Below, one piece after another: positions 1-10,324 of a DNA stretch of 10,324 bases. Below the pieces are notes generated by a model. The model was not told the origin of the DNA, searched no databases, and worked only from the letters and a program-made list of their open reading frames with translations. How positions within the stretch are numbered: the first letter of the stretch is position 1; the number at the start of each line of letters is the position of its first letter. Made by a program: the position numbers and the translations under genes. The DNA comes from a virus: UHGV virus genome UHGV-1724002. One strand, written 5' to 3'.

Positions 1-663
1 CTTGCCGTACCCCTGGTAGTTTTACGCCATTCCCTGAACTGTGTTCTGAATGCCGAAGCTGCGTTTTTCTTCCCGGCTTTCCGCATGCCTGCACACCAGA
101 ATATTTCCTCGAATGCCTTGTCGGTTTCTTCGTGACGGTCATGTGATTTTTCACACTCCGTCCGAACACTTTCGGACATAGTGTTTTTATTATTTCTTTT
201 TTCTTTGTAATAGTTTCTTTTGTGTGTCCCTGTTTTGGTGACAGCGCTGTCACCGTTTTGGTGACACTTTTTGTCACCAATGCAGTGACATTATCACCAG
301 AGTAGTGACACCCTTCTATTTGCCATTCCTCGATGTTCTTGTTAGGCCCGATTTGCTGGCCTTCGCGAAGGATAACCTTCATCGCGATAAGCTCATTCTT
401 GGCCTTGTTTACCTTCTGTCTTGGCAGCCTGGTAATTTGAGCTAACTGACTATCAGAGATGCGATCCATCTTTTTACCGTAGCCGTATGTTTTACGGCAT
501 ATGGCGTGGGCAACCTTGCTCTGATTTTCGTTAAATCTGCGCCGATAAGCTCTTCATACAGGGCATTTGCAAGACGGGTATAACCATCTTCAACTTCTGC
601 CACACGACGCTCCACAGGCCGTTGTGAAGGCCTTAAATGTGTTACGGTTGCAAGATTACTCAT
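1..663 (-). CDS. O: Replication initiator, lambda O family (5' partial at window edge; apparent -1 frameshifts near 525-528 and in the AT-rich stretch ~184-202)
   Basis: N-terminus from ATG 663 reads ...VAEVEDGYTRLANALYEELIGADLTK, matching lambda O (..VADLDDGYARLSNMLLEAYSGADLTK..). After the T4 run at 525-528 the -1 frame continues with lambda-O-like ..CRKTYGYGKKMDRISDSQLAQITRLP..GPNKNIEEW... SD gaaggagaaagg precedes the ATG. Iterons and AT-rich region lie inside the gene as in lambda. Confidence 0.65.
183..310. repeat. Putative replication origin: about four dyad-symmetric iterons built on GGTGACA/TGTCACC (233-310) beside an AT-rich stretch (183-229)
   Basis: Direct reading: GGTGACAgcgcTGTCACC (237-254), GGTGACActtttTGTCACC (259-277), GTGACAttaTCACC, GTGACAcc at roughly 20-bp spacing, then a T/A-rich tract. 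The layout mirrors lambda ori inside O. Confidence 0.55.
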
Positions 664-682
664 GACCTTTCTCCTTCTGTCA

Positions 683-802
683 TCAGCTCACTTTTTCCAA
701 CTCAGCCCGGAATCGACCAGGCTGCTTGAAGCTGGACAGGAAGCGATCACGTAGTATGTGTTTGTGAATTTTGTCCTGGTAAGGACTGAGTTGTTTTGTC
801 AT
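683..802 (-). CDS. Hypothetical 39-aa protein between cII-like and O-like genes
   Basis: ATG at 802-800 preceded by SD caggag at 5-nt spacing; translation [39 protein letters not shown]; stop at 685-683. No homology recognised. Confidence 0.3.
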
Positions 803-834
803 AATGACTCCTGTTGATAGATCCAGTAATGACC

Positions 835-1130
835 TCAGAATTGCATATCAATTTGCTTAAAATCCTCGGTGGCGGCCGGGGATTTTTCTTTGTGATTTCA
901 TCAAGCGCATACTTAAAAGCCCTGCTAATCGGACTGATGTCTGATGCCATTCCGAAAGCACACAAGACCGAAGCAATAAATCTCCAGTCCGTTCTGCTTA
1001 TCTTCGATTCATGACAGCCAATCATCTTTGCCAGACCGCGCTGGGTAAGCGTTGACAGGTTGATGAGTAAATCAGTTTCAGCGCGATCAATTTCTCGCTG
1101 TGTTGGCTTGCTATAACTTGCTTGTGTCAT
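835..1130 (-). CDS. cII: CII-like transcriptional activator (apparent -1 frameshift at T5 run 883-887; reconstructed length about 98 aa)
   Basis: Position right after cro/nutR. HTH region ..[32 protein letters not shown] resembles lambda CII ..ESALLNKIAMLGTEKTAEAVGVDKSQISRWKRDW. In the -1 frame after the run the C-terminus reads [15 protein letters not shown], against lambda ..RPAATERSEQIQMEF*. The track ORF 747..1130 is the unshifted read-through. Confidence 0.65.
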
Positions 1131-1214
1131 TTGTTAATTTTCCAATAGTGAATAGTTAGTTGAAAGGTATGCGTGGAAACGCATATGGCCTTAGTTGGTC
1201 AGATATCTTGGGGC

Positions 1215-1260
1215 TCGCTTTGTCAGCGACGTAGGACGAATGTCCATTGTGAAAAGAGCG
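1215..1260 (-). promoter_or_regulatory. nutR-like site: boxA-like CGCTCTTTT (1260-1252) and boxB-like hairpin UCGCU-GACAA-AGCGA (1229-1215)
   Basis: Read on the minus strand immediately downstream of the cro stop. boxA resembles lambdoid CGCTCTT(T/A)A. boxB is a 5-bp stem with GACAA pentaloop, which I recall as the P22 type, not the lambda GAAAA/GAAGA type. Confidence 0.45.
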
Positions 1261-1267
1261 GTGTTAC

Positions 1268-1477
<210 letters not shown>

Positions 1478-1494
1478 TTAGTACATGCAACCAT

Positions 1495-1561
1495 TATCAC
1501 GCTAGAGGTAAAATAGTCAACACGCACGGTGTTAGATATTTATCCCTTGCGGTGATAGATT
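1495..1561. promoter_or_regulatory. Right operator region: OR1 (1495-1510, 16 bp, atypical), OR2 (1518-1534), OR3 (1541-1557), with PR (-10 rc 1494-1499, -35 rc 1515-1520, leftward) and PRM (-35 1533-1538, -10 1556-1561, rightward, leaderless cI)
   Basis: OR2 CAACACGCACGGTGTTA and OR3 TATCCCTTGCGGTGATA match lambda exactly. OR1 reads TATCACGCTAGAGGTA against lambda TATCACCGCCAGAGGTA. Confidence 0.9.
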
Positions 1562-1564
1562 TAA

Positions 1565-2281
<717 letters not shown>

Positions 2282-2367
2282 GTCCGCAGCAAGAGACTTT
2301 ATACGCATCTAGATGTAGGAAATAAAAAAGAAGATCCCTACAATAAAAATAAGGAAATCATTAAGAT

Positions 2368-3273
2368 ATGTCGATTAACAGCAATAGCGAATCCCTGCAT
2401 CAAATGCAGCTTTTCCCTGTAGTAGAGGTTGTTTCTGATGATATTCCTATGGGCGTTCTCAATGATGGAACTCCTTACCTAACTCTCTACGGTCTCGCAA
2501 AGTTATGCGGCATTGATGACACGCCACTGAGGGTGTTCACATCAAACTGGAACACAGAGAAAAACAAACCCAGAGGTCAAAAAGTAGCTGCGTATTTAGC
2601 TGAGAAAGGGTTTCATAACGTCGAAAAGCTATACACTCGCGTTTTAAATAGCTCAAACGTGGAAACTCATGCTTATCCTGACTATGTTTGCATGGCTATC
2701 CTCCGTTACTACGCTCTAGATGCCACCAATTTTGATAGGTCAGTCGCAATAGGTAATTTTGTTCGCTTGGCTGAGTACACGCTTAAGCGAATGATTTATG
2801 AAAAGTCAAATTACAACCCAAATGCTTCAATAGATATCTCATTCGAGAACTATAGAGCAAGGATTAAGCTAAACGATCAGATACCGACAACTCATTTTGC
2901 AGTATTCAGAGAGATAGCTGACATTGCCATGAACCTGATCGGAGGAGGATTCCCAATGGATGACACCACATCTTTGGATGGAAGTGTTGGAATTCACTGG
3001 GGAAAGTATTGGACAGCTAATGGGCTATCTGAGAAATTCGGGGAAAGGGTGCAGTACCCACATTTATTCCCCGAAAATTACAGGCAGTCAGCTGCAAATA
3101 AGCATATAACAGCTTGGATTTATCCTATTGAGGCACTTGGCGTGTTCAGAAAATGGCTACACGATAATTACGCAATGGAAAAACTGCCAAATTACCTTGG
3201 GAACAAAAAGATTAGTAACGCCTCCGAGCTATTAGAGTCGATAAAAAAACCAGCACTCCCAAATAAGCATTGA
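2368..3273 (+). CDS. Hypothetical 301-aa protein in the rexAB-equivalent slot; possible KilA-N-like N-terminal domain; candidate BstA-like abortive-infection/exclusion protein
   Basis: Single uninterrupted ORF between cI and the tIMM-like terminator, same strand as cI, AT-rich by eye, SD aagga upstream. N-terminal segments DGTPYLTLYGLAKLCGIDD and ..THAYPDYVCMAILRYY resemble the KilA-N/APSES pattern from memory. Not search-verified. Confidence 0.8.
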   Translation: MSINSNSESLHQMQLFPVVEVVSDDIPMGVLNDGTPYLTLYGLAKLCGIDDTPLRVFTSNWNTEKNKPRGQKVAAYLAEKGFHNVEKLYTRVLNSSNVETHAYPDYVCMAILRYYALDATNFDRSVAIGNFVRLAEYTLKRMIYEKSNYNPNASIDISFENYRARIKLNDQIPTTHFAVFREIADIAMNLIGGGFPMDDTTSLDGSVGIHWGKYWTANGLSEKFGERVQYPHLFPENYRQSAANKHITAWIYPIEALGVFRKWLHDNYAMEKLPNYLGNKKISNASELLESIKKPALPNKH

Positions 3274-3284
3274 TCTCCACCACA

Positions 3285-3310
3285 ACCCGGCATCTGCGCC
3301 GGGTTTTCTT
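3285..3310 (+). terminator. Intrinsic terminator (tIMM-like) ending the cI/cargo-gene operon
   Basis: Hairpin ACCCGGC-atctgc-GCCGGGT (3285-3304) followed by TTTTCTTT; flanking sequence resembles the lambda tIMM/OL-proximal region. Confidence 0.6.
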
Positions 3311-3461
3311 TGCCTAACGCCCCCAAAAAACGCATAACCAATTGTATTTATTTCAAAATTAATAGATACAACTCACTAAACATCGCAATTCAGATCTCTC
3401 GATCACCTTCCCAATCCACACAACCCTGCAAAAAATAAATCTATATAAAAAACATACAGAT

Positions 3462-3531
3462 AACCATCTGCGGTGATAAATTATCTCTGGCGGTGTTGAC
3501 ATAAATACCACTGGCGGTGATACTAAGCACA
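3462..3531 (+). promoter_or_regulatory. Left operator region OL3 (3462-3478), OL2 (3482-3498), OL1 (3506-3522) and PL promoter (-35 TTGACA 3496-3501, -10 GATACT 3519-3524, start near 3531)
   Basis: Near-identical to lambda OL/PL: TATCTCTGGCGGTGTTGACATAAATACCACTGGCGGTGATACT. Confidence 0.92.
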
Positions 3532-3563
3532 TCAGCAGGACGCACTGACCACCATGAAGGTGA

Positions 3564-3594
3564 CGCTCTTAAAAATTAAGCCCTGAAGAAGGGT
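3564..3594 (+). promoter_or_regulatory. nutL: boxA CGCTCTTAA (3564-3572) and boxB GCCCUGAAGAAGGGU (3580-3594)
   Basis: Matches lambda nutL except the last boxB stem base is T where lambda has C, giving a G-U closing pair. Confidence 0.85.
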
Positions 3595-3752
3595 AGCATT
3601 CAAAGCAGAAGGCTTTGGTGTGTGTGATACGAAACGAAGCATTGGCCGGAAGTGCGAATCCGGATTAGCTGCCAATGTGCCAATCGCGGGGTGTTTTCGT
3701 TCAGGACTACGACTCCCACACACAACCAAAGCTAACTGACAGGAGAATCCAG

Positions 3753-4079
3753 ATGGATGCACAAACACGCCGCCGCGAACGTCGCGCAGAGAAACAGGCT
3801 CAATGGAAAGCAGCAAATCCCCTGTTGGTTGGGGTAAGCGCAAAACCAGTTAACCGCCCTATTCTCTCGCTGAATCGCAAACCGAAATCACGAGTAGAAA
3901 GCGCACTGAATCCGATAGACCTTACAGTGCTGGCTGAATACCACGAACAGATTGAAAGCAACCTGCAACGTATTGAGCGCAAGAATCAGCGCACATGGTA
4001 CAGCAAGCCACGTAGTGAAATGGGGTTGACTTGTGTTGGTCGCCAGAAAATGAAATTAGGCTGCAAACCACTTATTTGA
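3753..4079 (+). CDS. N: Antitermination protein N
   Basis: MDAQTRRRERRAEKQAQWKAANPLLVGVSAKPVNRPILSLNRKP.. matches lambda N including the arginine-rich motif; SD aggaga before ATG 3753. The track ORF from 3675 is an upstream in-frame extension through nutL. Confidence 0.95.
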   Translation: MDAQTRRRERRAEKQAQWKAANPLLVGVSAKPVNRPILSLNRKPKSRVESALNPIDLTVLAEYHEQIESNLQRIERKNQRTWYSKPRSEMGLTCVGRQKMKLGCKPLI

Positions 4080-4087
4080 GGTGATAT

Positions 4088-4351
4088 ATGGACAAGAAAA
4101 TTAAATCATTGAAGCCAGGAATTGTTATCAGAGACATAAGTGGTGATTACGATACAGAGACATATGATATTTTATATGTGCATGCAGATGGAAAATGTCA
4201 GTATTCGAACGACATTTTTAATAATAAAGGTGGTGCCGAAATTGCTGCCACCACAGTTAATAAAGAGTTAGTAGCTAACGAGTCGTGGGATTATTTTATG
4301 CCATCATCCACTTCTATGAACTGGAAAGTGGTTTTGTACATTCCATCATAA
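4088..4351 (+). CDS. Hypothetical 87-aa protein (AT-rich moron directly downstream of N)
   Basis: SD gaggtga before the ATG; the start lies 8 nt after the N stop; followed by an intrinsic terminator. No homology to lambda Ral or SieB recognised. Confidence 0.7.
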   Translation: MDKKIKSLKPGIVIRDISGDYDTETYDILYVHADGKCQYSNDIFNNKGGAEIAATTVNKELVANESWDYFMPSSTSMNWKVVLYIPS

Positions 4352-4392
4352 TTGTAGCTGCCGTTCAAAAATGAAAGTAAATCTAACATCAC

Positions 4393-4418
4393 AGGCCGCA
4401 TAGTCGGCCTTCTTTTGG
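4393..4418 (+). terminator. Intrinsic terminator
   Basis: Hairpin AGGCCG-catagt-CGGCCT followed by TCTTTTGG. Confidence 0.6.
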
Positions 4419-4512
4419 CATAAACAACAGAGGCTAACATGGAATTTAAAGGTACTAGGAAAAATTGGCGAGAAGCCAATTTGCAGGCTTAATTTTATTT
4501 TCACACCCGGGA

Positions 4513-4695
4513 ATGGCCCTATCCGGTAAAGAAACAGAAGAGGCCGTAGCAAATGGAAGGTTGGCTATGGCTGCACCGGATTTACTTGAAGCACTTCAGT
4601 TATTACTTAAGCAAGCCGAAAATAGAACAACGACAACATATCCAGAATGGTATGGAGCTGTTAATAAGGCTCGCGAAGCTATCAAAAAAGCCTAG
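4513..4695 (+). CDS. Hypothetical small protein (start uncertain; alternative ATG at 4567)
   Basis: The track ORF begins at TTG 4465. The first in-frame ATG is 4513; ATG 4567 has the better SD (ggaagg). Product ..MAAPDLLEALQLLLKQAENRTTTTYPEWYGAVNKAREAIKKA. Confidence 0.4.
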   Translation: MALSGKETEEAVANGRLAMAAPDLLEALQLLLKQAENRTTTTYPEWYGAVNKAREAIKKA

Positions 4696-4705
4696 GTGAT
4701 GAGTA

Positions 4706-4864
4706 ATGAATAAGAGATACATCGTTGAAGTTATAGAGCGAGAAACAAAAGAAGTAATTAAACATTTCGAATTTGATAATTATAGAAAAGCTGACCGAGT
4801 AGAAGAAGGATTGTTGCGACAAAGTAATCTCGAAAAATTTGATGTTGTCATGCGATGCGAATAA
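4706..4864 (+). CDS. Hypothetical 52-aa protein
   Basis: ATG 4706 with SD aggtga about 7 nt upstream; MNKRYIVEVIERETKEVIKHFEFDNYRKADRVEEGLLRQSNLEKFDVVMRCE; below the track length cutoff. Confidence 0.45.
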   Translation: MNKRYIVEVIERETKEVIKHFEFDNYRKADRVEEGLLRQSNLEKFDVVMRCE

Positions 4865-4957
4865 GCGCCTATAGCAGATTTACGAGTCTGCTATGTGAGC
4901 AATGTCGCTCGTAACTAAACAGGAGCCGACTTGTTCTGATTATTGGAAATCTTCTTT

Positions 4958-4984
4958 GCCCTCCAGTGTGAGGGCAATTTTTTT
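4958..4984 (+). terminator. Intrinsic terminator
   Basis: Hairpin GCCCTC-cagtgt-GAGGGC followed by a T7 run (4978-4984), immediately upstream of the SD/ATG at 4997. Confidence 0.65.
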
Positions 4985-4996
4985 GATGGAGGATAT

Positions 4997-5964
4997 ATGA
5001 GTGAAGTAACAGACTTAGTTGTTATTGAAAAAGCAAATGCAATGACTGTATTTCAGTCTGCAGACCAGATTGAAGAAATTCTCCAAAAGGTTGAACGTGA
5101 AGTTATGTCCTTTGTGCCTGATATCACAACGGCAAAGGGCAGAAAGGAGATCGCTTCTCTGGCGTATAAGTTGCGCAGACGAAAACATATCTCGATGGTC
5201 TTGGCAAAGACCTTGTTGCTGAACTGAAGGAAATTCCAAAGCTAATTGATGCCAACCGCAAGACAGTGCGCGATCGCCTTGATGAACTGAAAGCCAAGGC
5301 TCGCCAGCCTCTTACTGATTATGAGGAGGAACAGGCACGGATTAAAGCCGAAGAAGAAGCTAAGGCAGCAGCTGAAGCTCTCGCAAAGCAAATTGAGTCT
5401 GACCATGAAATAGCGATTTTGATGGATCGCGAATTTGACCGCCAAAGAGAAGAGGCAAGACTCAAAGCGGAGCAGGAAAAGCGAGAGCATGAAGAACGCT
5501 TAAAAAGAGAAGCTGAAGAGAAAGCCAGAGCAGAAGCCGAAGCAAAGGCAAAAGCCGAAATTGAAGCAGCAGCAAGGCGAGAAGCAGAAGCTAAGGCCGC
5601 AGCGGAGCGTGCAGAGCGTGAGCGCATTGAAGCCGAGCAACGAGCACAGCGCGAAGCAAAAGAGGAAGCAGAACGAGCTGAAAGAGAAAAGCAGGCAGCA
5701 ATTGAAGCAGAACGCAGAAAAGCACAGGAGGAGGCTGAACGAATCCGTCGCGAGGCTGAAGCAAAAGAGCAAGCCAGAATAGCAGAAGAAAAAAGAATCA
5801 AGGACGAAGAAGAGCGTAGAGCAAAGGATAAAGCTCACCGGAAAGAAGTAAATAACAAAATACTTGCTGACCTTATCAAGGTTGGCGCATCAGAAGATGT
5901 TGCTAAAAATATCATAACAGCCATCGTAAAAGGCGAAGTATTCGCAACAAAAATAACCTACTAA
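4997..5964 (+). CDS. Highly charged coiled-coil protein (E/A/R/K-rich) with short N- and C-terminal domains; apparent -1 frameshift near the A4 run 5182-5185
   Basis: SD ggagga before ATG 4997. N-terminal frame ..KEIASLAYKLRRRK stops at 5227 while the -1 frame is open from 5170 and continues ..TYLDGLGKDLVAELKEIPKL.. into a long EAEAKAKAE-type repeat region, ending ..NNKILADLIKVGASEDVAKNIITAIVKGEVFATKITY. Confidence 0.6.
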
Positions 5965-5988
5965 TAAAACCAACATAAGGAACCACCC

Positions 5989-6120
5989 ATGATTTACGCA
6001 ATCGCGGGAGGCGCTCGCATGGGTGCCTTCCAACTAAATGAATCTTTACTTGAACGAATCACCCGTAAATTACGTGACGGATGGAAAAGAGTTGAGGTCT
6101 TATTATGCGCAATGAAATAG
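5989..6120 (+). CDS. cIII: CIII-like protease-inhibitor protein (43 aa, divergent C-terminus)
   Basis: MIYAIAGGARMGAFQLNESLLERITRKLRDGWKR.. against lambda CIII MQYAIAGWPVAGCPSESLLERITRKLRDGWKR..; SD aagga upstream. Confidence 0.75.
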   Translation: MIYAIAGGARMGAFQLNESLLERITRKLRDGWKRVEVLLCAMK

Positions 6121-6257
6121 CCATCAATCACCAGATGCTTCGTGCAGCACAAAACAAAGCAGTAATAGCCAGATTTATTGGTGATTCAAAAATGTGGCTT
6201 GAAGCAAATAAAGCGATGAAATCAGCTATCAACCTTCCGTGGTATCGCAGGAAATGA
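6105..6257 (+). CDS. kil: Kil-like host division inhibitor (start may be the internal ATG)
   Basis: ..AVIARFIGDSKMWLEANKAMKS.. resembles lambda Kil ..ATFIGDEKM.. from memory; sits immediately after cIII as in lambda. Confidence 0.55.
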   Translation: MRNEIAINHQMLRAAQNKAVIARFIGDSKMWLEANKAMKSAINLPWYRRK

Positions 6258-6361
6258 GTTTTACAGATAACTGGTCAGACGAAGAATTCATTCGTCAGAT
6301 GAACAAAATGCTCAATCAGCACAAAGAACAGGAGAAAGATGATGATTCTGACTCTGAATGA
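6254..6361 (+). CDS. Hypothetical 35-aa acidic protein
   Basis: ATGA overlap with the kil stop; MSFTDNWSDEEFIRQMNKMLNQHKEQEKDDDSDSE; weak evidence only. Confidence 0.3.
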   Translation: MSFTDNWSDEEFIRQMNKMLNQHKEQEKDDDSDSE

Positions 6362-6650
6362 TAAGCGTGAAATATCGCAAATAATCGCAAGTTTTACTGA
6401 TGAAGATTACGAGCGAATCAACAGTGAAGTTGATCGCCTCTGCAAACGTTGCGACCCAATAAGCGAAATGCTTCGCTCATATAAACCAGATGAACACACT
6501 AAGGACGCTATCGACTGGCTGGAAGATGATGACTGTAACTATCAGGAAAAAGCCGCTGAATGGTTCTGGGATGCAATAACCGAAAGAGTTAAGGCTGAAT
6601 ATGCCTTCGCAATATTCAAACGCAGACACATTTTTGGAGAAGCAGCATGA
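6339..6650 (+). CDS. Hypothetical 103-aa protein immediately upstream of recT (occupies the lambda gam position)
   Basis: SD aggag before the tandem ATGs at 6339/6342; its stop overlaps the recT start (ATGA). No homology to lambda Gam recognised. Confidence 0.6.
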   Translation: MMILTLNDKREISQIIASFTDEDYERINSEVDRLCKRCDPISEMLRSYKPDEHTKDAIDWLEDDDCNYQEKAAEWFWDAITERVKAEYAFAIFKRRHIFGEAA

Positions 6651-7557
6651 GCAATATCGTTGAATTCGTTAAACAGCAGGAGCAGTTATTCTGCGGAGCA
6701 TTGACTGAACAGACGGTGACATGGGCTAAGGAAAGCCAGTTTGCAATTCAGTATTTCCAGAAAAATGATTACCTGGCTAAAACAGCACTGGCAAATCCAA
6801 CCAGCGCACAGAACGCCATCATCAATGTTGCGGCGATCGGTATCACCTTAAACCCGGCTAGCAAACTGGCTTATCTGGTTCCGCGCGACGGCATGGTTTG
6901 CCTTGATATCAGCTATATGGGATTGCTACATATTGCAATGGAGTCTGGTGTTATCTCATGGGGTCAGGCAAAGCTTGTTCATGCTAACGATACTTATGAG
7001 TCAAACGGACTTGATAAAGCACCAACCATAAATACAACGCCTTCGGTGATCGTGGCGATATCGTTGGTGTTTACTGCACAGTTAAGACGCCAGCAGGTGA
7101 TTATCTAACGGAAGAGATGAGTCTGGCTGAAATTGAGGCTGTAAGGAAAACAAGCAAGGCGGCATTCAGCGATAAAGGACCATGGGTAAATCACTGGAAT
7201 GAGATGGCGCGAAAGACGGTCGTAAAGCGTGCAAGCAAGTATTGGCCTAAGGCATCACGTCTTGATAGTGCTATTCACGTACTAAACGAAGAAGAAGGTG
7301 TATGGACTGAACCAGTTATGCCGCACAAATCAGAGGAAGATATCCGCGAAGATGAACGGAAACGCCAGCAGGAAATAACGGATAAAGCACAACTTCTTTG
7401 TGATGAAATGGCTCAGGCTGAAAACATGGATGATTTGAAGAGATATTTTGCAGAAGCATATCGCCTGACATCTGGAATGAAATTGCAGCAAAACGTACAA
7501 GCCATTTACGCAGAATGCAAAGCGAAACTGGAGGTTGCCAGTGAGCAAACTGTATGA
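6647..7557 (+). CDS. recT: RecT-family single-strand annealing recombinase (apparent -1 frameshift near 7016-7030)
   Basis: Downstream half contains ..GPWVNHWNEMARKTVVKRASKYWP.., matching the RecT motif GPWVTHWEEMAKKTAIRRLFKYLP. The upstream ORF frame stops at 7108; the -1 frame is open from 7018 and reads ..HKYNAFGDRGDIVGVYCTVKTPAGDYLTEEMSLAEIEAVRK.., joining the two track ORFs 6647..7108 and 7117..7557. Confidence 0.8.
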
Positions 7558-8023
7558 AATTGCCAATGAATACGCAAAATTGATGGATTCAGATTTAGAG
7601 CCAGAGATGATTGCTGACACAATAGAAGGCATGGAAGGAGAATTTACCGATAAAATAGAGCAACTTCTTGCCATTATTAAAAATGAATCTGGTTATGCTG
7701 AACGCCTCAAGGACGAGGCGAAGTCACTGAATGAACGAGCAGCAGTAATTCAAAATAAGATTGACAGCATCAAATCATATATAGCGTCATCGCTTGAAAT
7801 GGTTGGCAAGAAAAAGATTCGAGCAGGTATTCACCAGGTAACAATCCGCAAACCGTCAGAAACCGTAGAAATCATCGACTCAAGCGCCCTTCCTCCTGAA
7901 TACGTTGAGTTTGAAACGACAATTAAAGCCGACAAGTTGGCAATCAAGCACCAACTAAAAGCAGGAATAAATATCCCAGGCGCTCAACTCAAGGTTGGGA
8001 AACCTTCACTTCTTATCAAATAA
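7541..8023 (+). CDS. Hypothetical protein, possibly Gp157-family (recombination-module associated)
   Basis: GTG start 7541 with SD ggagg 6 nt upstream; overlaps the recT 3' end. The family assignment is from memory of recT-adjacent Gp157-like genes, unverified. Confidence 0.5.
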   Translation: MSKLYEIANEYAKLMDSDLEPEMIADTIEGMEGEFTDKIEQLLAIIKNESGYAERLKDEAKSLNERAAVIQNKIDSIKSYIASSLEMVGKKKIRAGIHQVTIRKPSETVEIIDSSALPPEYVEFETTIKADKLAIKHQLKAGINIPGAQLKVGKPSLLIK

Positions 8024-8034
8024 CGGTATCGCCT

Positions 8035-8349
8035 ATGAAAAAGACTCCTTGGGAGAAATGGGAAGTCGATTTCTTGCGCGAAGTAGCGGCAACAATGCCA
8101 GTTGAAGTTATTGCTGAAAAACTGGAAAGGACTGAAAAAGCAGTTATGGCGAAAGCAACAAGGATTGGCGCTGACATTGTTAGCCGACTTCGTGGAAGAC
8201 GCTGGACAAGAGCCGAAGTATCACTTTTCGGTAAGTTCTCCGCAGAAGAAATAGCAATTGCAACCTGCCGCTCAATTTATTCAGTAAGAGCTATGCGATA
8301 CAAGCTAAAAAAACTCGATGAAGAAAGAGCAGGCATACGAATAAATTAA
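8035..8349 (+). CDS. Hypothetical 104-aa protein with an internal tandem repeat of a helix-turn-helix-like motif
   Basis: Two similar segments: WEKWEVDFLREVAATMPVEVIAEKLERTEKAVMAKATRIG and WTRAEVSLFGKFSAEEIAIATCRSIYSVRAMRYKL. Confidence 0.5.
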   Translation: MKKTPWEKWEVDFLREVAATMPVEVIAEKLERTEKAVMAKATRIGADIVSRLRGRRWTRAEVSLFGKFSAEEIAIATCRSIYSVRAMRYKLKKLDEERAGIRIN

Positions 8350-8528
8350 CAAAGAGGAATTTACCATGAGATGACTTGCATACAACCCCGGCATTCTTCC
8401 TGCAGAATGATTATTCGCCAACGCGTAAAGCCAATGCCATCGAGAGAGGAATTGCTTAAGAGAAAGAGTTTCGGTTCTGTTAATGACAACAAATATCTGA
8501 ATGCGATGTTGCGCAAAGGAGGCAACCA

Positions 8529-9224
8529 ATGAGCGAAATTAATTACCAGGCACTGCGTGAGGCGGCACAGAACGCGAAAGATTTAGGTGGGATTAAGAAT
8601 TACAAGCGAGGTGAGCAAGCTGTTGCCGAATTTGAGTCCTTAATAACGCCACACATTGTGCTGGCGCTTCTGGATGAACGGGAAAGAAACCAGCAATACA
8701 TCAAACGCCGCGACCAGGAGAACGAGGATATTGCGCTAACGGTAGGGAAGCTGCGCGTTGAGCTTGAAGCAGCAAAATCAAAACTCAACGAGCAGCGCGA
8801 GTATTACGAGGGAGTAATCGCGGATGGAAGTAAGCGTATTGCTGAACTGGAGAAAAGCGAAGAGCAACTCATCAACGAGCGTGACCATGCTGAGTCTGCT
8901 TTAGCTGATATGTATTTTGCAGCAACCGGGGATAGGCCTGAGTGGAGCAACTGGTTCGGCTTTTCAGATGCTGTCGATGCCGTGGTTGACAGAATTGCTG
9001 ATTTAGAAGCTAAACAGCCATCGCCAGTAGTGCCGGATAATGCATCAGAGTCTCTTGCTTATGCTTACAAAGAGCTTACGCCTGAGATTATGCGCGGTCA
9101 TATCGCTGTATTCGAGCGATATGGAATAGCCCCAAACGATAGCATTACCACAATTCAGGCACTGCGAATCGCGCTGGATGGTATAGAGCGGAGCAACGCC
9201 ATGCTTCAGGGGAAAGGAGAGTGA
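8529..9224 (+). CDS. Hypothetical 231-aa coiled-coil protein, possibly Ead/Ea22-like
   Basis: Strong SD aaaggagg before the ATG; a central region of coiled-coil character; position corresponds to the lambda ea22 neighbourhood. Family call is from memory and weak. Confidence 0.7.
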
Positions 9225-9225
9225 T

Positions 9226-9843
9226 ATGACCACTATTACCAGAGAACAAGCTCTGAAAATTATTGAGGCAGCCGATGAGGTTATTAGTGCGCTTGCCGGA
9301 ACTAACGAGGATGTTCACCCTGGTAGCGATAACATGCTACGCCTGTGGGATGACCTGAATGACCGTTACGCGCCCCCGGAAGTAGTGCGTGAGCTGGCAC
9401 GAATTGTGCTGGCATCGCTGGAAGCGGAGCCTGTTCTGTATCAGTCCTGCACACGCCCCACCTGGAATAGCGGTGTTCCGTGGACGGAATGGAAAGAACG
9501 AAGTCGTGAGTGCTACGAAGACGATTTGCGCTTTACAGACACGCCTGACCATGCCGGTTGGATAAACAAATGCCGAAAACTATATACCACTCCGCCAGCG
9601 CCGGTAATACAGGCTGATGTCGCGCAAGCAATTGAAAATCTCAAGCAGAAGTTAGTGGAATGCAATCGCTATAACTACTGCGCAGATGCAGTTAAAGGCA
9701 TAGAGGTGCCTGCCGTGCTGTTAGCTATAGCCAAGCCGACAATCAACCAGCATCTGGCAACCAGGCTGCCGAATCCAATCGCAGTAATGAGTGGACCGGC
9801 AATCCTGATATTGATAACGCCATCATCATGCTCGACCGCATAG
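9226..9843 (+). CDS. Hypothetical 205-aa protein (C-terminal 35 aa may be out-of-frame read-through)
   Basis: Start overlaps the upstream stop (TGATATG). The tail ..PAILILITPSSCSTA looks non-protein-like, and the next gene's frame is open from about 9736. Confidence 0.6.
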   Translation: MTTITREQALKIIEAADEVISALAGTNEDVHPGSDNMLRLWDDLNDRYAPPEVVRELARIVLASLEAEPVLYQSCTRPTWNSGVPWTEWKERSRECYEDDLRFTDTPDHAGWINKCRKLYTTPPAPVIQADVAQAIENLKQKLVECNRYNYCADAVKGIEVPAVLLAIAKPTINQHLATRLPNPIAVMSGPAILILITPSSCSTA

Positions 9844-10181
9844 ATACGGCGGAAAGTTGCGATGATGACCGTATTGAGGCTGTTAAGGCTGTTTTGCGTA
9901 GACTGGCTGGCAACTATCCGGTAACTCCGGATGGTTGGGTTATAGTGCCGAAGAAACTAACCGCTGAGAACGGCGCTAAGGGTGTGCTATCCGGTGAATT
10001 TTCAGAAACTACGTTTATAAGCTGCCCGGAATGCTTTGGCGATGATGATTGCGATACCTGTGACGGGAGCGGACGAATTGAAATTAAAGTACCAGTCACG
10101 TGGACGACCATAAAATCCATCTGGGATAAAGGTATTGCGCATTTTGCAGCAAAACCGCCGCAGGAGGTTAACCGTGGCTAA
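9828..10181 (+). CDS. Hypothetical protein with a CxxC...CxxC zinc-ribbon-like motif (start may lie upstream, as early as about 9736)
   Basis: Motif CPECFGDDDCDTCDGSGRI; in-frame upstream sequence ..SNRSNEWTGNPDIDNAIIMLDRI is protein-like. Confidence 0.55.
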   Translation: MLDRIDTAESCDDDRIEAVKAVLRRLAGNYPVTPDGWVIVPKKLTAENGAKGVLSGEFSETTFISCPECFGDDDCDTCDGSGRIEIKVPVTWTTIKSIWDKGIAHFAAKPPQEVNRG

Positions 10182-10324
10182 CCTGCAACTTGCCGTCAAA
10201 GGTGAATACTTCGATGCCATGATTCGCGGAGAGAAAACGGAAGAGTATCGCCTGTGTAATGACTACTGGAATAAGCGAATTATGTTCCGCGAGTATGACC
10301 GCCTGATTATCACAAAGGGATATC
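10174..10324 (+). CDS. Hypothetical protein, possibly ASCH-domain (3' partial at window edge)
   Basis: GTG start with SD ggagg 6 nt upstream, overlapping the previous stop. ..KGEYFDAMIRGEKTEEYR fits the ASCH GxKxxExR motif from memory. Confidence 0.4.
   Translation, partial: MANLQLAVKGEYFDAMIRGEKTEEYRLCNDYWNKRIMFREYDRLIITKGY

Follow-up and report, generated by a model that had tools for sequence, protein, structure and literature searches.

Frameshifts in the lambdoid prophage contig UHGV-1724002 are most probably homopolymer-length errors of a low-coverage assembly

The virus genome UHGV-1724002 (10,324 nt, analysed over its whole length and referred to here as the window) is the early region of a lambdoid, lambda-immunity Escherichia coli prophage, and many of its reading frames are broken by single-base changes. 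We conclude, with a probability of roughly 0.93, that these frameshifts are sequencing or assembly errors and do not reflect gene inactivation. A preliminary description of the sequence had listed at least five interrupted genes and had suggested systematic under-calling of homopolymer lengths. The number was an understatement, with eight genes affected and 12 events in all. The suggestion itself is borne out by the approximately twofold coverage of the contig, by 12 private indels alongside no private substitution, by the near absence of the shortened alleles elsewhere, by the identity of the repaired products to those of intact genomes and by the indels of sibling assemblies. What underlies the contig is an intact lambda-immunity prophage of an ordinary kind, with the defence gene BstA, and several E. 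coli isolates harbour the same lineage at the lambda attachment site.

The window is an entire SPAdes metagenome contig (ena:ERZ504554:NODE_1596_length_10324_cov_2.019516). Its k-mer coverage of ∼ 2x (2.02) is too low for errors to be out-voted. At such coverage the consensus is decided by single reads, and errors in those reads persist in the contig. A read chemistry whose dominant error is the single-base miscall of homopolymer length could then produce the 11 under-calls and one stray insertion that we observe, and these would be expected to fall regardless of function, in essential genes, in accessory genes and in an operator.

Private indels and substitutions were counted against 271 related loci (median 36 per position). 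Twelve private single-base indels were found (11 deletions and one insertion), and no private substitution over all 10,324 positions. The indels affect the O-like gene (twice), the DUF2740 gene, the cII-like gene, a Y8K6-family gene (twice), a TolA-like gene, recT, a DUF2737 remnant, a 318-aa gene and, outside the genes, operator OR1. A search with the whole window against complete E. coli genomes and phage records returned no record that covered > 55% of it, because the region is mosaic. The first alignments were therefore made segment by segment, with relatives from finished E. coli genomes and phages. Relatives with 99.7% identity were obtained later through exact look-up of the gp157 and N proteins. 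In addition, 40-mers that carry either the shortened or the repaired allele were matched to 5,426 complete E. coli genomes.

Two of the deletions lie in the O-like replication gene (1–663, minus strand), which is also cut by the contig end. The run at 204–206 is T3 where the relatives have T4, and the run at 525–528 is T4 where they have T5. The former is one base longer in 25 of 26 relatives, the exception (L021) having its own deletion in the adjacent T6 run. At the latter, T5 is present in 23 of 27 relatives and T4 in four (L019 and L021–L023), and none of the 5,426 complete genomes has the T4 allele. The DUF2740 gene (656–802, minus strand) contains the only insertion, an extra T at 680, together with a deletion at 688 (T versus TT), and a stop codon is created between the two; in all 36 relatives the T at 680 is absent and 688 reads TT. 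In the cII-like gene (835–1130, minus strand), which as given forms part of a 127-aa fused open reading frame (ORF), the run at 883–887 is T5, whereas T6 is found in 39 of 40 relatives, the sole exception being RefSeq strain ET729. The only intergenic event is the loss of a C at 1500 (C versus CC) in 1494–1509, which, given the lambda OR1 sequence, we take to be the operator OR1, overlapping promoter PR. Here CC is present in 36 of 36 relatives (TATCAC-GCTAGAGGTA in the window versus TATCACCGCTAGAGGTA). According to the preliminary description immunity would be left intact if the deletions were real; this does not hold, because OR1 itself would lose a base. The same operator has T at position 1503 where the lambda-type sequence has C (GCTAGAGG versus GCCAGAGG), a natural polymorphism, because it is common to several finished genomes.

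Five genes to the right of the operator are affected. The XkdD/Y8K6-family gene (4439–4706, plus strand) lacks two bases, one at 4460–4464 (A5 versus A6 in the closest relatives) and one at 4691–4692 (CC versus CCC). The first of these had initially been placed in the T run 4480–4482 on the basis of relatives with 95–98% identity and was moved to the A run by the 99.7% relatives. Two natural haplotypes of this gene exist, A6/T3 in 13 loci and A5/T4 in seven (window positions 4460–4482; loci L255 and L027). Two single-base changes in run length that compensate each other, separated by 20 nt, distinguish the haplotypes, which encode ...RKKLARSQF... and ...RKNWREANF..., respectively; the A5/T3 combination of the window is neither. 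The TolA-like coiled-coil gene (4997–5964, plus strand) is broken into 76 and 232 aa by AA in place of AAA at 5168–5169; AAA is found in 137 of 138 relatives (exception L024) and in 121 of 121 loci from IMG/VR. In recT (6647–7557, plus strand; broken into 153 and 146 aa) the window has CC at 7026–7027, and CCC is present in 132 of 133 relatives (exception L016, a Logan contig from run DRR042503) and in 110 of 110 IMG/VR loci. The DUF2737 remnant (8366–8532, plus strand) lacks an A at 8406–8407 (AA versus AAA), the run being one base longer in 97 relatives. Lastly, the DUF551-like 318-aa gene (9226–10181, plus strand) is broken into 205 and 117 aa by GG at 9705–9706, which is GGG in the closest relatives and one base longer in 12 of 12 relatives; this event had been read as a missing A after 9706 in alignments with the 95–98% relatives, a placement that the 99.7% relatives corrected to a missing G. 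At the remaining deletion sites, the IMG/VR loci that were fetched always have the long form.

The comparison of homopolymer lengths with related prophages, which the preliminary description had proposed as a check, thus shows the window to be one base shorter than essentially all relatives. Of the five positions it had named, 525–528 and 883–887 were exact, and the other three were in the right gene but in the wrong run. The second shift in O had been assigned to the T5 and T6 runs at 184–202 (actual site T3 204–206), that in the coiled-coil gene to an A4 run at 5182–5185 (AA 5168–5169) and that in recT to an A/T run at 7016–7024, where the base in fact missing is a C of 7026–7027. The 680/688 pair and the indels at 1500, 4460–4464, 4691–4692, 8406–8407 and 9705–9706 were absent from that account.

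Correction of one base per site restores uninterrupted frames, as had been anticipated, and the C-terminus of the repaired cII product (15 residues) is exactly the one predicted. The repaired Y8K6 (89 aa), TolA-like (322 aa), RecT (303 aa) and 318-aa proteins are each 100% identical to proteins of GCA_005386765.1. Repaired O stays open for 221 aa, as far as the contig end, with a match to Pfam Phage_rep_O that covers 1–95 of 95 positions (E = 1e-37); in relatives the gene is annotated as an 861-bp ‘replication protein’. Repaired cII encodes 98 aa that match Phage_CII over 1–90 of 91 positions (E = 4e-33), and its relatives are annotated as a 297-bp CII family regulator. The repaired DUF2740 product covers 1–43 of the 43 positions of its Pfam family, and in repaired RecT the Pfam RecT match spans the former break. 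Three isolate genomes (GCA_005386765.1, GCA_013984915.1 and GCA_003297955.1) and several metagenome scaffolds are 99.7% identical to the window over 1254–10324, and all of these relatives have the longer allele at each of the seven sites within that interval. Compared with each other, these high-quality assemblies are free of gaps over 14–16 kb.

The sister prophage, present in the same three genomes and in GCA_003300795.1 (99.6–99.7% over 1254–10324), has the gene order of the window, from cro, cI, BstA and N through recT to the 318-aa gene, but all of its genes are intact. It differs in the replication module, which encodes a 92-aa CII, a 273-aa O and a DnaB-type helicase, whereas that of the window combines a 98-aa CII with DUF2740 and with an O type followed in relatives by a toprim-domain protein. 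The mosaic junction lies near 1254–1310, and its boundary is marked by six clustered differences at 1262–1307 (relative to L255).

The shortened alleles are also almost entirely missing from finished sequences. The 40-mers with shortened alleles match a single one of the 5,426 complete genomes, through the cII gene of ET729, and the repaired 40-mers match 1,316 genomes. In ET729 (L025, NZ_CP100927.1) the same T6-to-T5 change in cII is flagged as ‘frameshifted’ by the Prokaryotic Genome Annotation Pipeline (PGAP), as is the nearby replicative helicase gene. It is probably another assembly with homopolymer errors, and it differs from the window in being an isolate assembly flagged by PGAP and not a low-coverage metagenome contig. 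The homologs also bear on the idea that the shifts are functional, that is, that the runs serve programmed frameshifting or phase variation. The homopolymer context would suit such a mechanism, and nothing beyond that context speaks for it. Homologs have single uninterrupted frames across every site, with the full-length frames conserved, the runs are short (2–6 bases) and one site is intergenic, so that we regard recoding as having a negligible probability.

The spectrum of the events is strongly skewed. Deletions outnumber insertions 11 to 1 (binomial P = 0.006), in agreement with the single direction reported previously. The restriction to A/T homopolymers that had been proposed alongside it applies to seven deletions; the other four, recT among them, are in C/G runs. 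All 11 deletions are in homopolymers of 2–6 bases, although runs of ≥ 2 hold 47% of the bases (P = 2e-4), and nine of the 11 are in runs of ≥ 3, which hold 17% (P = 4e-6). The hit rate per run is 0 for single bases, 0.0013 for runs of two, 0.014 for three, 0.010 for four, 0.029 for five and 0.17 for six. The density is ∼ 1.2 indels per kb, and placement along the contig is compatible with a uniform distribution (Kolmogorov–Smirnov P = 0.07), the intergenic operator included. We also considered selection as the reason why cI, cro, BstA and N (2.1 kb) were spared; with 12 events spread over 10.3 kb, zero hits there would occur with a probability of 0.08, not a significant value, and the idea was dropped.

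Single-base events in homopolymers at a rate that depends on run length would likewise be produced by a recent burst of slippage in a mismatch-repair-deficient host, in which case the frameshifts would be real but very young. Mismatch-repair-deficient mutators still yield more transitions than indels, and the window has no private transition. Slippage would be expected to favour the longest runs, but all six 7-base runs are untouched and seven events are in runs of two or three. Nor would it explain the different single-base indels of the sibling assemblies (see below). We consider such a burst a remote prospect.

Decay of a cryptic prophage, with frameshifts gathered under relaxed selection until many genes were inactivated, is a further reading. 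Defective lambdoid prophages are common in E. coli, many genes are affected here, replication and recombination functions among them, and one lesion is real. Codon 3 of the DUF2737 remnant is TGA (8372–8374) where most relatives have GGA. The T at 8372 is common to the eight closest relatives, isolate genomes among them, so that the TGA, at first read as real decay or a substitution error, is a natural trait, a real lineage-specific inactivation or start shift. The 12 indels behave differently. Neutral decay in E. coli mutation-accumulation studies reportedly yields about ten substitutions per indel, but the window has 12 private indels and no private substitution. Measured against the finished-genome panel, 36 differences are panel-private; once the frames are repaired, 32 of them are synonymous and 31 fall at third codon positions, and the pattern continues past the shifts in both recT and the TolA-like gene. 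Relaxed selection has left no trace. Every lesion measures 1 bp, large deletions and insertion sequence (IS) elements are absent, and the gene order is as complete as in the isolates. The isolates do not share the lesions, only the one shortened allele was matched in the complete genomes, and one lesion would disable OR1. The truly defective E. coli prophages Rac, DLP12 and Qin resemble the window in that replication and recombination genes are disrupted and the repressor is kept, but they bear large deletions, IS insertions and substitution decay, in contrast to the single-base homopolymer indels, the lack of private substitutions and the complete gene order seen here. Real decay is therefore highly improbable.

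The error pattern is one known from flow chemistry. On Ion Torrent's Personal Genome Machine (PGM), indels dominate the errors, with substitutions about ten times rarer, and under-calling dominates in runs of ≥ 2 (Bragg et al., 2013; PMC3623719). ‘High-frequency indel’ errors arise at roughly one per kb, and those with strand asymmetry are for the most part deletions of C/G within runs of 2–3; the sites of systematic indel errors coincide between runs more often than expected by chance (PMC3623719). The window resembles Ion Torrent or 454 miscalls in the dominance of single-base indels, the rarity of substitutions and the under-calls in runs of ≥ 2. Further points of resemblance are a rate that rises with run length, a density near one per kb, deletions of C/G within runs of 2–3 and some recurring sites. 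The same prophage is also found on a Logan contig of run DRR042503. The neighbouring runs DRR042402-403 are cited as part of the Japanese gut set of Nishijima (2016), for which 454, Ion PGM/Proton and MiSeq instruments were used. Accessions of the closest isolates are of the DDBJ style. We infer through this indirect literature link that the instrument behind ERZ504554 was probably an Ion Torrent or a 454.

Two sibling assemblies of the same ERZ accession series contain the same prophage. ERZ504479 (coverage 0.56) has CCC in recT and three private single-base indels in 1.3 kb. ERZ504677 NODE_76 (L262/L268, coverage 5.87), which extends into the host flank, is intact at all seven of the window sites that it covers, but against an isolate it shows 10 private single-base insertions within 20.5 kb, most of them at or adjoining A/T runs of 6–7. 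These insertions split cI, O and int and truncate the neighbouring host aconitase-family gene (725 aa versus 753 aa). The errors of ERZ504677 thus differ in kind from those of the window, being insertions at long A/T runs and not deletions. The whole ERZ assembly series looks indel-prone.

Several observations weigh against an origin in sequencing errors. The 7-base runs, six in number, were all spared, against an expectation of ∼ 1 hit. Had the reads been generated by Illumina sequencing, even a coverage of 2x would hardly account for 12 indel errors within 10 kb. Three of the shortened alleles recur in other contigs. The AA at 5168 is present in a 954-bp scaffold from another study (L024, ERZ28597570), which is 98.4% identical to the window with 15 differing positions, has no other gap and belongs to data that are not demonstrably error-prone. 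The CC at 7026 is present in the DRR042503 contig (L016), 16 bases from the contig end, and the T4 at 525 in the four contigs noted above; three of these four have further private homopolymer indels in their aligned part. L016, L024 and the T4 contigs were all retrieved by exact look-up of the frameshift products and were thus selected for the coincidence.

These recurrences raise a mixed case, with errors behind most of the indels and real circulating variants behind one or two of the shortened alleles (AA 5168 and CC 7026). The diverged haplotype of L024, its origin in a different study and its lack of any other gap fit such a case, as does the CC allele of L016. Real recT-null alleles also appear to exist in this phage family: two independent metagenome contigs from different studies (L017 and L018; ERZ28582837 and ERZ27246669) share a recT TAT-to-TAA nonsense change, aligned to 6995–6997, with the CCC run intact, which looks like a real circulating recT-null allele. 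Conversely, L016 and L024 are contigs of ∼ 1 kb found by a look-up that selects the identical frameshift product, the L016 site is close to a contig end, and AAA and CCC are otherwise invariant among the relatives, with neither shortened allele in any complete genome. Recurrence at the same sites is moreover what systematic Ion Torrent indels show across runs (PMC3623719). We regard the mixed case as unlikely. That all or a good part of the 12 indels are real is very unlikely; the window would then represent a very recently, multiply inactivated BstA prophage in gut E. coli, produced by an indel-only process without substitutions, and the recurring AA 5168 and CC 7026 would mark null alleles in circulation, the former of the TolA-like gene and the latter of recT.

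If, as we conclude, the split genes are read errors, there is nothing biological to explain, and the significance of the result is one of quality control only: a known homopolymer-length error of flow sequencing would have survived in a low-coverage assembly, and no biological feature is involved. Gene calls on the ERZ504554 contig, and probably across the whole ERZ5044xx-5046xx series, would contain artificial split and fused ORFs. Such ORFs are already singleton clusters in protein collections, the 205-aa, 76-aa and 127-aa products being found in the window contig or in one or two others only. Claims of a defective prophage, of novel small proteins or of pseudogene load drawn from ERZ5044xx-5046xx contigs would be wrong. 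A tally of private indels versus private substitutions, with close relatives as the reference, provides a simple test of artefact versus decay.

The remaining genes of the window complete a lambdoid early region. To the left of OR1 lies cro (1268–1468, minus strand), and a lambda-type cI occupies 1568–2281. The BstA abortive-infection gene (2368–3273, plus strand; PADLOC BstA, E = 1.3e-105) is intact and sits between cI and PL, the place of rexAB in lambda. Its product is also assigned to Pfam BstA_C in precomputed annotations, and the identical protein is recorded on 645 contigs. N is the next gene along, followed by the Y8K6-family gene. Between the TolA-like gene and recT are cIII and then kil; gp157 lies between recT and the DUF2737 remnant, and Ead/Ea22 between that remnant and the 318-aa gene. 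The last gene, after the 318-aa gene, is an ASCH gene of which the window has the start only. In the isolates (L255, L264 and L270) a lambda-type integrase (Arm-DNA-bind_1) forms the end of the sister prophage and adjoins a pectinesterase-family gene, beyond which are aconitase-family, transporter and PrpF-family genes. On the K-12 map, this flank is presumably the ybhC–ybhJ side of the lambda attachment site.

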